DNA of 64,000 bases from a bacterium (GCA_021818465.1 JAKAEA010000001.1:311712-375711); one strand, 5' to 3'; numbered from the stretch's first letter, positions 50,047 through 57,064 are shown. Notes: generated from the letters alone by a model not told the origin. Translations and numbers: made by a program.

Positions 50047-51654
50047 TTGTGGTTATATACTGGTATAACATTTCACTCTATGTCACGAGACGTAAGACTA
50101 AAAGTAAATAACCAAGACCACCGAAACAGTAATGGACGGCTGGAGAGTCAGCTCTTTTCTGCCGCTGACAAACTTCGTAAGAACATCGACGCCGCCGAGT
50201 ACAAGCACATTGTTCTCGGCCTTATTTTTTTGAAGTACATCTCCGACAGCTTCGAGGCGATGCACGCGAAGCTGTCCTCGGGCGAGGGTGAGTATGCAGG
50301 TGCCGACGCTGAAGACCCCGACGAATACCGCGCAGAGAACGTCTTCTGGGTGCCGCAGGAGGCGCGGTGGTCGTTCCTGCACGGCCGCGCGAAGCAGCCG
50401 TCTATCGGCAAAGACCTCGACGCCGCAATGGACGCCATCGAGAAGGCCAACCCCACCCTCAAAGGCATCCTGCCGAAGGTGTACGCGACACCGAACCTCG
50501 ATAAGCTCGCGCTCGGCTCACTCATCGACCTCATCGGCGACATCGCGCTTGGCGACGAAGCAGCGAAGTCGAAAGACATCCTCGGGCGCGTGTACGAATA
50601 CTTCCTCGGCCAGTTCGCCTCCGCCGAGGGCAAGAAAGGCGGCCAGTTCTATACCCCGCGCTCTATCGTCGAGCTGATGGTCGAGATGATAGAGCCGCAC
50701 AAAGGGCGCGTGTACGACCCTGCTTGCGGCTCGGGCGGTATGTTCGTGATGAGCGAGAAGTTCGTGCTCTCGCATCGCGGCCGCCTCGACGACATCTCCG
50801 TGTTCGGCCAGGAGAGCAACTACACCACCTATCGCCTCGCTCGCATGAACCTCGCCATCCGCGGCATCGACGGCTCGCAGGTCGAGTGGAACAGCGAGGG
50901 CTCATTCCTCAAAGACGCCCACCCCGACCTGAAGGCCGACTACATTCTCGCCAATCCTCCGTTCAATCAGGACGACTGGGGCTGGGACATCGTGAAGAAC
51001 GACCCGCGCTGGCAGTACGGCACGCCGCCTGCGGGCAACGCCAACTTTGGCTGGATGCAGCACATGATTTACCACCTCGCGCCGAAGGGCGTCATGGCGA
51101 TGGTACTGGCCAATGGCTCGCTCTCTTCGCAGTCGAGCGGCGAAGGCGAAATACGCAAGAACATCGTGGATGCAGATCTGGTGGATTGCATCGTCGCGCT
51201 TCCCAAGCAGCTTTTCTACAACACGGGCATCCCCGCATGCCTCTGGTTCATCTCGCGCAAGCGCCTCGGCAACGGCGACCGCAAGCGCACGGGCGAAGTG
51301 CTCTTTATCGACGCCTCGGAGATGGGACACTTGGTCGACCGCACGCACCGCGAGTTCACCGAGGAGGACGTGCAGAAAATCGCCCGCACCTATCACGAGT
51401 GGCGCAGCACAGATGGCAAGTATGAAGACGTGAAGGGATTCTCCAAGTCAGCGACGTTGCCCGAAATCCAAAAGCACAAGTACGTGCTCACGCCAGGCCG
51501 CTACGTCGGCGCGGCAGCCATCGCAGACGACGGCGAGCCATTTGCCGATAAGATGGCACGCCTCACCTCGACCCTGAAGTCGCAGATGGCCGAGGAGGAG
51601 CAGCTCAACGCCGAAATTGCGAAGCAGTTAAAAAAGGTTGGGTTTGGGATGTGA
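50047..51654 (+). CDS. hsdM: Type I restriction-modification system methyltransferase subunit
   Basis: HsdM N-domain ([29 protein letters not shown]), AdoMet motif [10 protein letters not shown], motif IV NPPFN; ~60% GC. Confidence 0.9.
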
Positions 51655-51992
51655 TCATGGCGGATTACTACGACACAATGCAAGTGTGCGTGCGATGGGG
51701 GCACAAGACGACGGAATACTATAACCGAAGCCCGCAGTGGGGTGCCGACTTCTGTCCGCAATGCGGAAGCGCGACTACCATCGTGTGTGGAAAATGTGGG
51801 GCTAACATACGTGGTCACCATCATTTTGATGGTTTTTTCTCTGCCGTAGACACTAAAGTGCCTCTCAACTGCCATGCCTGCGGCGTAGCGTATTCATGGA
51901 AGTTTCGACACGTCGTAAGAAACTTCTTCAAGGCGTTAGTCGCACCCGTGAAGTACCTGATAGACGCCCTGGTGAGCGTTTTCAAGAAATGA
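51651..51992 (+). CDS. Small Cys-rich zinc-ribbon protein embedded between hsdM and hsdS (113 aa)
   Basis: GTG/ATG start overlapping hsdM stop, stop overlapping hsdS ATG (ATGA); three CxxC pairs (CPQCG, CGKCG, CHACG). Confidence 0.55.
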
Positions 51993-53857: not shown

Positions 53858-56800
53858 ATGAACCGAATCTACGAAAGCGACATCGAGAAGTGGGCTATCG
53901 AGGCACTGGAACACCAGGGCTACACGTACCTCGCACCCGAGACGCAGGAGGCCGAGCGCGGTGACCTGCACGACGTCGTGCTCGCGGGGCGGTTGCGCGA
54001 GGCCGTGGCACGACTCAACCCTAGAGTGCCCGAAGACGCGCGCGAGGACGCGGTCAAAAAAGTGCTCGCGCTTTCGTCATCGCCGCACTTGATAGAGGCA
54101 AACGAGGAGTTCCAGCGGATGCTCACTGATGGCGTGAGCGTGTCTTCCTACGCTGATGGCGAACAACGTGGCGAGGTCGTCCGCGTCATCGACTTCGCAG
54201 ATCCGCGCAATAACGACCTCGTGGTGGCCAACCAGTTCTCGGTACTCCACGACAACACTAGCAAGCGCCCCGACGTGGTACTCATCGTCAACGGCCTGCC
54301 TCTCGTCGTCATCGAGCTAAAGAACCCGACGGATGAGAACGCGACCGTGCACAAGGCGTACCAGCAGCTCGACAACTACAAGCGAGCCATTCCGCAGCTG
54401 TTCGCCTACAACAGCGTCCTGGTGGCCTCTGACGGCATAGACGCGAAGGCAGGGGCGCTCACGAGCCCGTGGGAGCGCTTCGCTATCTGGCGTGCGCCCG
54501 AGGGTAAGCGCGAGAAGGAAAAGACGACGCCGCAGATGCAGGTGCTCGTCGAGGAGATGCTCCAGCCCGAGGTGCTGCTCGACGTGGTGCGCAGCTTTAC
54601 GGTCTTTGAGAAGACGCGCCGCGAGGATGCGAAAACAGGTCAGACCATCGTGGAAACCATCAAGAAAATCGCGCAGTATCACCAATACTACGTGGTCAAT
54701 AAAGCGGTCGCTTCGACGACTAAGGCCACCGCAGAACATGGCGAGCGCAAAATCGGCGTCGTATGGCATACGCAGGGTTCGGGCAAGTCGCTCTCGATGG
54801 TGTTCTACACGGGCAAGGTCGTGCTCGCGCTCGATAACCCGACGGTGGTGGTGCTCACTGACCGCAACGACCTCGACGACCAGCTCTTCGAGACGTTTGC
54901 TGGTGCTCGCGACCTCTTGCGCCAGGAGCCCGTGCAGGCCGAAAGCCGCGAACACCTGAAGAAGCTTTTGCAGACGGCTGGTGGCGGCATCATCTTCACC
55001 ACCATTCAGAAGTTCTTCCCCGAGGACGGCGGGAGCACGTATGACGAGCTGTCCGACCGCAAGAACATCGTCGTCGTTGCGGACGAGGCGCACCGCAGCC
55101 AGTACGGCTTCGCGGCGCGAACGGTCTTCAAGAACGACGAGGCCATCACGCGCTACGGCAGCGCCAAGTACCTGCGCGACGCACTCCCGAACGCCTCGTT
55201 CATCGGCTTCACGGGTACGCCTATCGAGAAGGAGGACAAGTCCACGCTCGCTGTTTTCGGCGAGTATCTCGACGTGTACGACATCCAGCGTGCGGTCGAA
55301 GACAAAGCAACCGTTCCCATCTACTACGAGAGCCGTTTGGTGAAGGTGCACCTGCCCGACGACAAGAAAGCGGAGATGGACGAAGACGTGGAGGCGGTGG
55401 CCGAGGGCATCGAGTTTTCAGCAAAGGAGAAAGCCAAAGCGAAGTGGGCGCAGCTCGAAGCCATCGTCGGTAATCGCGAGCGAATCAAAGAGGTCGCTCG
55501 CGACCTGGTGGAGCACTTTGAGACGCGGCAAGAGGTCTTCACGGGCAAAGCGATGGTCGTGGCGATGAGCCGTCGTATCGCGGTGGAGCTGTACGAGGAG
55601 ATTGTCGCGCTCCGTCCCGAGTGGCACAGCACCGATTTGGATAAGGGCAAAATCAAGGTGGTGATGTCGGCGAGTTCGAGCGACCCGAAAGAGTTCCAGC
55701 AGCACCACACGAACAAGCCCGACCGCCGCAAGCTCGCGGAGCGTTTCAAAGACCCTACCAACCCGCTCCAGCTCGTCATCGTGCGTGACATGTGGCTCAC
55801 GGGCTTCGACGTGCCGTGCCTGCACACGATGTACGTGGACAAGCTCATGGAGGGCCACAATCTCATGCAAGCCATCGCTCGCGTCAATCGCGTCTATAAA
55901 GACAAGCCAGGCGGTCTCATCGTGGACTACATCGGCTTTGCCTCCGACTTGCAGAAAGCGCTCGCCGTCTACACCGAGAGCGGCGGCAAGGGCGACCCGA
56001 CCATCACGCAGAAGAAAGCCATCGAGGTGATGCAGGAGAAGTACGAGGTGGTGAAGCAGATGTTCCATGGCTTCGACTACCAGCGCTACTTCGCCGCCGA
56101 CACGCACGCGAAGCTCGGCATTATCCTCGAGGCGCAGGAGCACATTCTCGCGCAAGACCAAGACGACGAAGGCGCGTCAGGCAAGGAAAAGAAGAAAACC
56201 AGCGCCAAAGAGCGGTTCGTGCGGGAGGTTATGGCGCTGTCGCAGTCGTTTGCGCTTGCGGTGCCGAGCGAGGCGGCGATGGAGATACGCGACGAGGTTG
56301 CGTTCTTCCAGGCAATCAAGGCACGGCTTGTGAAGTTTGAGCCCGAGGGCGCACCTGGCACCGAGAACATCGGTACCGCTATTCGCCAAATCGTCGATCA
56401 GGCACTCGTGGCCGAGGGTGTCGTGGACATCTTTGCTGCGGCAGGCGTGCAGAAGCCCGACCTCTCCGTTCTCTCGGACGAGTTCCTCGCCGAGGTGCAA
56501 GGCATGAAGCATCGCAACCTGGCGATGGAGTTGCTGCGCAAGATTTTGAACGACGAGATAAAGCTACGCCTGCGCCGCAACGCGCTCCAGGGCAAGAAGC
56601 TCTCGGAGATGCTCGATAAGACCATCAAGAAGTATCAAAACAACCTGCTCACGGCCTCCGAGGTCATCCAAGAGCTCATCGAGCTGGCAAAGCAGATACG
56701 GCAGGAAGACGCCCGCGGCACGCAACTCGGCCTCTCTGACGACGAGGTGGCCTTCTACGATGCGCTGGCCGAAAACGAGAGCGCCCGCGAGGTGCTGGGC

Positions 56801-57064
56801 GATGAACAGCTGCGCGACCTCGCCCGTGTCCTCGTCGACAAGGTGCGCAAGAACACCTCGATTGACTGGACTATCCGTGAGAACGTACAAGCCCGCCTGC
56901 GCGTCTTGGTGAAGCGCACGCTCAACCAGTACGGCTATCCGCCCGATAAGCAGGCCATCGCCACCGAGACCGTGCTGAAGCAGGCTGAACTATTCGCCGA
57001 CGAGTGGGATGATTCTAGTTTGGATACTGTACAAAAAATTACTTCAGAGACTTTAAAGAAATAA
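53858..57064 (+). CDS. hsdR: Type I restriction enzyme R subunit
   Basis: N-terminal nuclease/HsdR_N region, SF2 helicase motifs (GSGKS Walker A, DEAHRSQ), 1068 aa. Confidence 0.9.

Follow-up and report, generated by a model that had tools for sequence, protein, structure and literature searches.

Type I restriction-modification (RM) operons, like BREX and DISARM loci, often hold embedded genes, of which 17,432 non-redundant examples in 3,231 families have been collected, and embedding has proved predictive of defence ("guilt-by-embedding"; Payne et al. 2024, bioRxiv 10.1101/2024.01.29.577857). The Hma-embedded candidates validated in that work include a DUF3644-HEPN protein with zinc-finger-like domains. 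Additionally, the HEPN families Ymh, DUF4145 and EC042_2821, the last overlapping DUF3644, occur in RM operons, some of them fused to zinc ribbons, and multi-level defence has been proposed by analogy with PrrC (Anantharaman et al. 2013, PMC3710099), itself listed as an RM guardian in a 2025 review (PMC12707154). In Vibrio cholerae VPI-2, the two genes that interrupt a type I RM operon (TgvAB) form a working GmrSD-like defence system (PMC11411939). Here we analyse a comparable locus, positions 50047-57064 of a 64,000-nucleotide stretch of bacterial DNA (GCA_021818465.1, JAKAEA010000001.1:311712-375711; hereafter the window), in which two small genes, X and Y, are interspersed with those of a type I RM system.

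Judged from its sequence, the locus is an intact type I RM operon of a bacterium of the candidate phyla radiation (CPR) carrying two small uncharacterised guest genes, X between hsdM and hsdS (slot A) and Y between hsdS and hsdR (slot B). In our best explanation (probability about 0.55), X and Y are candidates for accessory defence that act independently of each other and ride on RM expression. An accessory or second-line defence role is the best reading because relatives of both genes recur inside RM operons. We favour independent cassettes because in sister operons slot B contains domains known from defence systems that stand alone, because X and Y each occur without the other, and because Y accompanies RM systems that share no subunits. 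An earlier note on this DNA had stated that known insertions at these positions are large nucleases of the PrrC/RloC type. That statement was wrong, as small embedded genes (Ymh, DUF4145, DUF3644, GmrSD-like and others) are documented in PMC3710099, PMC11411939 and bioRxiv 10.1101/2024.01.29.577857.

Operon anatomy and the exchange of genes in two slots

Five intact open reading frames (ORFs) on the plus strand, in the order hsdM-X-hsdS-Y-hsdR, were read directly from the sequence, with chained junctions exactly as the earlier note had described them. The methyltransferase gene hsdM (50089-51654) encodes 521 amino acids from ATG 50089, with an alternative TTG start at 50047, and its TGA stop (51652-51654) overlaps the GTG start of X as GTGA. 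X (51651-51992), which encodes a DUF2321 zinc-ribbon protein of 113 amino acids from GTG 51651 or 111 from the other possible start, ATG 51657, ends in a TGA (51990-51992) that overlaps the hsdS start, ATG 51989, as ATGA. The specificity gene hsdS (51989-53155; 388 amino acids) stops at TAA 53153-53155 and is followed after a 2-nt gap by Y (53158-53856), which runs from ATG 53158 to TAA 53854-53856 and encodes a 232-amino-acid, putatively membrane-anchored helical-bundle protein. After a 1-nt gap, hsdR begins at ATG 53858 and extends to 57064, encoding a restriction and translocase subunit of 1068 amino acids. The junctions are 4-nt overlaps or gaps of 1-2 nt throughout.

All three RM subunits are full length and contain every expected domain, which bears out the earlier view of a complete type I operon with two extra genes. 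HsdM combines an N6-adenine methyltransferase domain (PF02384, E 1e-109) with the HsdM N-terminal domain (PF12161, E 5e-25) and matches the PADLOC model MTase_I at E 5e-203. HsdS has two target-recognition regions, with PF01420 matching from residue 7 (E 6e-36) and PADLOC Specificity_I matching over two stretches (E 2e-107). HsdR carries an N-terminal nuclease region, a superfamily 2 translocase and a C-terminal assembly domain, with matches to HSDR_N, SWI2_SNF2/ResIII, T1R_D3-like and T1RH-like_C, and it scores E 3e-194 against TIGR00348 and 1200 bits against PADLOC REase_I.

In the record deposited for this genome, GCA_027341405.1 (a 540-kb contig), the X gene is uncalled and a minus-strand ORF of 124 amino acids is listed instead, while hsdS is extended upstream by 31 codons to 51896, overlapping the conserved X tail (51896-51988). 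We take the X frame to be the conserved one because it has a Pfam match and same-length homologues with a conserved C-terminal tail. A promoter and terminator scan of 49300-58200 was uninformative on operon structure: promoter-like sites were fewer than in shuffled sequences, and the 18 terminator-like sites (9.6 +/- 3.8 in shuffles, about 2 standard deviations above) lay mostly on the minus strand (14 of 18).

The closest HsdR relatives, at 82-91% identity, are all arranged as hsdM-[slot A]-hsdS-[slot B]-hsdR and contain different fillers. At 91% HsdR identity, locus L062 has proteins of 80 and 379 amino acids in slot A and DUF4238 in slot B. DUF4145 occupies slot A in L063 (88%), L065/L066 (87%) and L070 (87%), paired in slot B with a 268-amino-acid protein, DUF3644 and the Shedu domain SduA_C, respectively. 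The most distant of these operons, on contig P0247 (82%), carries a 105-amino-acid protein and an HTH-Peptidase_M78 protein in slot A, and PIN_12 and AAA_15/OLD-TOPRIM proteins in slot B. Tight or overlapping junctions are the rule across the whole operon lineage, whichever gene occupies the slots. Thus, tightness is a property of the carrier operon and is not special to X or Y.

Comparison with L062 at the DNA level places the breakpoints at gene ends. Identity is 87% over 50140-51652, ending at the hsdM stop, and resumes at 84% over 53848-57009, beginning 10 nt before the hsdR ATG; between the hsdM stop and 53848, only central (52478-52581) and 3' (53090-53153) regions of hsdS match. The composition is equally mosaic, with a GC content at third codon positions (GC3) of 0.80 in hsdM, 0.61 in X, 0.53 in hsdS, 0.38 in Y and 0.80 in hsdR. 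Because the fillers differ among sister operons, the L062 breakpoints fall at gene ends and GC3 is mosaic, we conclude that X and Y are cassettes that were acquired separately and that begin and end where the genes do. The GC3 of 0.80 in hsdM and hsdR, in a window of 0.47 overall GC, suggests that the carrier itself may have been acquired recently from a donor of much higher GC, although close relatives occur in CPR contigs as well.

The earlier note had also treated the five genes as one co-translated unit. They are not one co-evolved unit: X and Y do not co-occur elsewhere, their composition differs from that of hsdM and hsdR, and they are replaced where HsdR is 82-91% identical. Such mosaicism, with its breakpoints at gene boundaries, would also be expected if the slots were permissive recombination sites in an often-transferred operon and X and Y were neutral or selfish passengers, either cargo unrelated to defence or decaying remnants. 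The lack of a catalytic domain in both proteins fits this idea, as does the minimal size of X, most other members of its family being longer. We nevertheless consider passengers of this kind unlikely, given that both families are conserved (Y in its core motif, X in its invariant cysteine ligands and its tail), that both reading frames are intact, and that most of the fillers known from these slots have domains associated with defence.

The zinc-ribbon protein X and its relatives

Profile searches, a check suggested in the earlier note, placed X in DUF2321 (PF10083) with E 2.4e-20 and 73.2 bits against a gathering cut-off of 24, and matched it to phrog_16447 with E 4e-13. The Pfam match covers profile positions 1-81 of 157, short of the full length. 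Residues 5-86 make up a zinc ribbon with cysteine and histidine ligands for two sites (C13, H18, C35xxC38, C46xxC49 and C74xxC77), reproducing the DUF2321 pattern of C, H, CxxC, CxxC and CxxC. The six cysteines of the CxxC pairs are invariant in the alignment of X homologues, and the first two ligands, C13 and H18, almost so; 150 DUF2321 representatives show the same. We found no functional study of DUF2321, PF10083 or COG4306 in the literature.

The remainder of X, residues ~85-113, is a conserved tail with the motif PxKYLIDxLVxxFKK. Its hydrophobic moment is ~0.45-0.6 and its best 19-residue Kyte-Doolittle window scores 1.5; the tail is amphipathic and not a clear membrane span. X belongs to a subfamily of short forms (109-113 amino acids) consisting of the zinc ribbon and this conserved tail, which resembles, by eye only, the C-terminal motif of the canonical 157-174-amino-acid DUF2321 proteins, ..LIDLVSEAVKKSL... 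Thus, X is best seen as a minimal member of the family and not a broken one. Matches of X to eukaryotic C2H2 zinc-finger arrays among PDB sequences look like artefacts of cysteine and histidine composition and were not used.

An exhaustive search of 1.84 billion cluster representatives (E <= 1e-3) recovered 876 relatives of X, whose conserved unit is the zinc ribbon of ~80 residues. Among 150 DUF2321 representatives this ribbon is usually N-terminal and fused to varied C-terminal domains, most often a DpnII-MboI-type restriction endonuclease (REase; 12 proteins), followed by the HEPN family Hypoth_Ymh (4), TIR-type domains (CAP12/Pycsar-type TIR, 3; TIR_2, 3; TIR, 2), caspase (2) and EAD11 (2), with AbiJ_NTD, protein kinase, GGDEF and PLD in one each. 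Some representatives also have transmembrane segments, as judged by eye. Such a fusion pattern has the architecture of a conflict-system sensor or adaptor domain, which we take the DUF2321 zinc ribbon to be on these grounds.

To place X-like genes in context, one genome per species was scanned with a four-sequence X alignment as query, and neighbours were annotated by BLAST and Pfam, yielding nine loci. In seven of the nine, the X-like gene lies directly upstream of hsdS or of an EcoRI-like methylase gene. Five of these are insertions right before hsdS within an hsdM..hsdR operon, mostly with a 4-nt overlap, and come from Moraniibacteriota (L018), two metagenome-assembled genomes labelled Pseudomonadales (L020, L021), Paceibacterota (L023) and Saccharibacteria (L024). 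Other genes embedded in these five operons include Bro-N, DUF4145, DUF3644 and AAA_14 ATPases, and L023 has, in this position before hsdS, a fusion of the X-type zinc ribbon with Hypoth_Ymh. The other two (L019, L022) have the X-like gene directly before an EcoRI-like methylase gene and then a GmrSD_N gene, with an HNH domain in L019. Of the loci outside this arrangement, L017 has the X-like gene after a GmrSD_N gene with an EcoEI-type hsdR nearby, and L025 (Arcicella) is a stand-alone fusion of zinc ribbon and REase.

Between hsdM and hsdR of the Moraniibacteriota operon (L018, 5320-14114) lie ThsB-TIR and ThsA-Macro genes, a Thoeris-like pair, together with a DUF3644 gene and two AAA_14/DUF4143 ATPase genes, besides the X-like gene ahead of hsdS.

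In line with the fail-safe proposed in the earlier note, X, Y or both could act as an RM guardian, physically monitoring the Hsd complex and triggering growth arrest, for example through membrane damage by Y, once a phage anti-restriction protein inactivates the enzyme. Type I loci are known to harbour such a guardian in the case of PrrC, which plays this role with EcoprrI. The proposal is favoured for X by its constant place directly upstream of, and often overlapping, hsdS or the EcoRI-like methylase gene in the seven such loci, and by the fusion of the ribbon to an RM-embedded HEPN Ymh in L023. Additionally, Y is membrane anchored, as are many abortive-infection effectors. A specific contact with Hsd proteins is, however, hard to reconcile with the presence of Y beside at least five mechanistically unrelated RM architectures and beside proteases, and the two genes do not form a sensor-effector pair, as neither accompanies the other elsewhere. 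Close relatives also fill the slots with stand-alone defence domains (Shedu SduA_C, OLD-like ATPase/PIN). We therefore regard a guardian role as rather improbable.

The Y family and its neighbourhoods

Y has no match in Pfam, NCBIfam, PADLOC or PHROG, weak Pfam matches (E <= 10) across all 24 aligned family members point to no consistent family, and a PDB profile search of Y found nothing. The family comprises 77 homologues (sequence clusters), mostly of 231 amino acids, and the few with a source name come from Parcubacteria or Paceibacterota, that is, from CPR bacteria. A core motif of 17 residues is almost fully conserved among 24 sequences that are 39-68% identical to the window Y, and polar residues that do not vary include D121, K122, S130, D140, E152 and R195. 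Hydropathy is strong for a first helix (residues ~8-28) and marginal for a second (~34-52), and the protein consists of an N-terminal two-helix membrane hairpin and a four-helix bundle. Because basic residues flank the hairpin on either side, the positive-inside rule would place both termini inside (N-in, C-in) and the bundle in the cytoplasm. The 24-sequence alignment has neither the conserved Rx4-6H motif of HEPN domains nor an invariant histidine.

Two simpler explanations of X and Y can be set aside. They are not pseudogenes or frameshift artefacts of a normal three-gene operon, a possibility the earlier note had raised, as X is a bona fide DUF2321 protein with same-length homologues and Y has its 77 homologues, most of 231 amino acids. 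Nor are they fragments of HsdM, HsdS or HsdR, for X another of its concerns, since X scores 73 bits on PF10083 and Y has a family of its own.

We examined ~45 loci with Y-like genes, ~40 of them distinct; we count about half of the distinct ones as embedded in RM operons, which are of at least five architectures. Type I operons carry Y in the same hsdS-Y-hsdR position in L010-L014, where Y is 67% identical and slot A holds the HEPN protein Hypoth_Ymh, and in L027, while L048 has Y between hsdM and hsdS. In about seven loci Y follows a helix-turn-helix (HTH) gene, an EcoRI-like methylase gene and a GmrSD_N/HNH gene, and in L044 the order is HTH, Y, methylase, GmrSD. An HTH gene and Y precede an Eco57I-like type IIG enzyme in L030, and an N6_N4 methylase, a ResIII helicase and Vpar_1526 in L003-L005, a layout that gene lengths alone suggest for L026 and L055 too. 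In L036, Y comes after an N6_N4 methylase and a MutH-like nuclease. Y thus belongs to an undescribed family of membrane proteins that is linked with five or more RM architectures.

In a neighbour-joining tree of Y, RM partners change among closely related sequences, with L026 falling within the type I cases and a single HTH-Y clade standing before three different RM types. No X-like gene was found at the ~45 Y loci and no Y-like gene at the nine X loci, so X and Y as a two-gene module can be discarded.

Two side observations concern these neighbourhoods. In a cassette that recurs in CPR contigs, a GmrSD_N (DUF262)-type gene, which includes HNH where it is complete, comes after an EcoRI-like methylase gene, and a small HTH gene usually stands first; the cassette has an X-like gene upstream in L019 and L022, and a Y-like gene after it in L028-L033 and L038 or just after the HTH gene in L044. 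It is in itself unusual for a methylase to be paired with a GmrSD-like nuclease. Separately, a Y homologue in L006 (6494-8696) lies 220 bp after AbiEii, and L010 (3208-8696) has the order AbiEii, hsdM, Ymh, hsdS, Y; L006 looks like a deletion derivative that would have lost the RM genes and kept Y.

The association of Y with RM operons of several types could also be read as RM housekeeping, with X tuning the expression or assembly of the modification enzyme and Y localising or regulating restriction at the membrane where DNA enters, a setting of some relevance as CPR cells are thought to take up DNA. In support, the order of X with hsdS or methylase is constant, with stop and start overlapping, and in one Y clade a small XRE-family HTH gene and Y form a constant 5' leader before three RM types. 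Against it, the closest operons work without X or Y and have unrelated genes in the same slots, and Y also occurs with no RM gene nearby. Elsewhere the DUF2321 ribbon is joined to effectors of the killing type (REase, TIR, caspase, PLD, HEPN), and thus a conflict-system sensor fits better than an assembly factor. Taken together, these points make housekeeping very unlikely in our judgement.

Equally doubtful is a scheme in which Y would be a CPR-specific generic RM partner, coupling unrelated restriction types (I, II, IIG and methylase/ResIII-helicase) to the membrane at DNA entry or serving them as a common membrane-damaging fail-safe, while the X-type minimal DUF2321 protein would be a widespread zinc-ribbon sensor in free-standing form, docking onto the specificity or methylase component.

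Proposed accessory defence, neighbouring genes and comparison with known systems

Returning to X and Y as independent accessory defence candidates, we envisage that the type I operon was horizontally acquired and belongs to a lineage met repeatedly in CPR bacteria. Recombination at gene boundaries would exchange single genes or small gene sets in slots A and B, and the guests would be transcribed and translationally coupled with the RM genes. X may then act as a sensor or adaptor whose amphipathic tail binds the membrane or a partner, and Y may act at the inner membrane face, in abortive infection or exclusion. What we observe directly is the anatomy of the genes, the families to which they belong, the exchange in the slots, the mosaic composition and the repeated embedding in RM operons; from these we infer a defence activity of X and Y and its mechanism. 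Both genes lie between genes of a known defence system, and homologues of both are repeatedly embedded in or adjacent to such systems.

Several findings weigh against this reading. No enzymatic or known effector domain was detected in X or Y in scans of Pfam, NCBIfam and PADLOC, and neither protein matched any family at E <= 0.1 among the 5027 models of PADLOC-DB v2.0.0 (2023). Structure adds little: the fold matches of Y are generic helical bundles, and an AlphaFold model of X from a three-sequence alignment was poor (pLDDT, a per-residue confidence score, of 60) and was not used. In about five loci Y follows a trypsin-like protease gene, and in others it follows DUF2726 (L053) or FtsK-gamma or has one of several unknown partners. 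Longer DUF2321 proteins occur as stand-alone genes in Staphylococcus phage phi879, on a Bacillus thuringiensis plasmid and in an apparent Klebsiella integrative and conjugative element (ICE) beside AbiE. Because part of the Y family has non-RM neighbours and the wider DUF2321 family includes stand-alone genes, embedding may reflect merely a permissive insertion site.

These findings also divide the earlier suggestion of an accessory module coupled to RM. Recurrent RM embedding supports an accessory role, but specificity to type I systems does not hold for Y, part of whose family is found beside proteases or unknown genes. The same note had reasoned that homologues never associated with RM would speak against the module; relatives of both genes do recur in RM operons, yet the wider DUF2321 family also stands alone.

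Downstream of the operon, on the plus strand, lie a gene of the nuclease-like family DUF2726 (57494-58033; PF10881, E 1e-27), a zeta-toxin-family kinase gene (58079-58783; PF06414, E 2e-32) and a 65-amino-acid ORF that overlaps it (58780-58977). These genes (57494-58977) belong to the same variable island and are context rather than operon members; no epsilon-like antitoxin gene was seen ahead of the zeta gene in this interval. A DUF2726 gene directly precedes the Y homologue in L053 too. A TspO gene follows (59299-59781), and in L010-L011 the Y-bearing operon likewise has a TspO gene downstream, while in L019 one lies near the X relative.

A YgjP-like metallopeptidase gene (59787-60194) lies 2.7 kb downstream of hsdR, behind DUF2726, zeta, two small ORFs and TspO. 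In L020 such a gene (9193-9765) comes directly after hsdR, with a same-size ORF in L021, and in L062 it lies ~1.8 kb downstream (10097-10678), which suggests later insertions between hsdR and its usual YgjP-like neighbour. Three small, very acidic ORFs beyond the island (59047-59253, 60282-60632 and 60677-60949) share a ~40-amino-acid motif, ELMxxYxLxxExA...GLDExxAV, and gave no significant Pfam match; acidic proteins beside an RM locus could be DNA mimics.

To our knowledge, few defence systems have been described in CPR bacteria. RM operons plausibly form a major part of CPR defence because these bacteria rarely carry CRISPR-Cas, as two papers state (PMC4742961, PMC6509639). The most useful outcomes of our analysis are the picture of a widespread CPR type I RM lineage that serves as a carrier, with defence cargo exchanged in two slots, and two small candidates, Y from an undescribed family and X as an RM-embedded short form of the uncharacterised DUF2321.

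Among known systems, PrrC and RloC share with X and Y a position inside a type I RM operon and the hypothesis of a second line of defence. They are, however, large ABC-ATPase and HEPN proteins (PMC3710099), whereas X and Y are small (113 and 232 amino acids) and gave no ATPase (AAA_13), nuclease or HEPN match in Pfam, NCBIfam or PADLOC, in agreement with the earlier remark that neither resembles PrrC or RloC. Additionally, PrrC and RloC embed in type I loci, and Y also occurs with RM systems of other types. Ymh, DUF4145 and DUF3644, all HEPN families, are found in these slots of sister operons, DUF4145 or Ymh in slot A and DUF3644 in slot B. The X-type ribbon also occurs joined to Ymh, once in L023 and in 4 of the 150 representatives. 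Neither X nor Y has a Pfam match to these three families, and X itself is just a zinc ribbon with a ~29-residue tail and no HEPN domain.

X scores above the DUF2321 gathering threshold and keeps all cysteine and histidine ligands of the family. It lacks the helical middle region of ~50-60 residues found in canonical members (~157-174 amino acids) and the effector domains of the long forms, and its short-tail subfamily is mostly RM-embedded, whereas the canonical forms inspected stand alone in a phage, a plasmid and an apparent ICE.

The nearest likeness is to embedded genes such as TgvAB and those of Payne et al. Many of these are stand-alone defence proteins, and the sister operons here carry SduA_C, DUF3644 and OLD-like/PIN proteins, from which X and Y differ as single small proteins with no recognisable enzymatic domain. 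That defence genes are embedded in RM operons is already established, and the value of this locus lies in two candidates for the catalogue rather than in a new concept or kind of system. In common with the described cases, it has extra same-strand, tightly packed genes between hsd genes, and its fillers are exchangeable among related operons.

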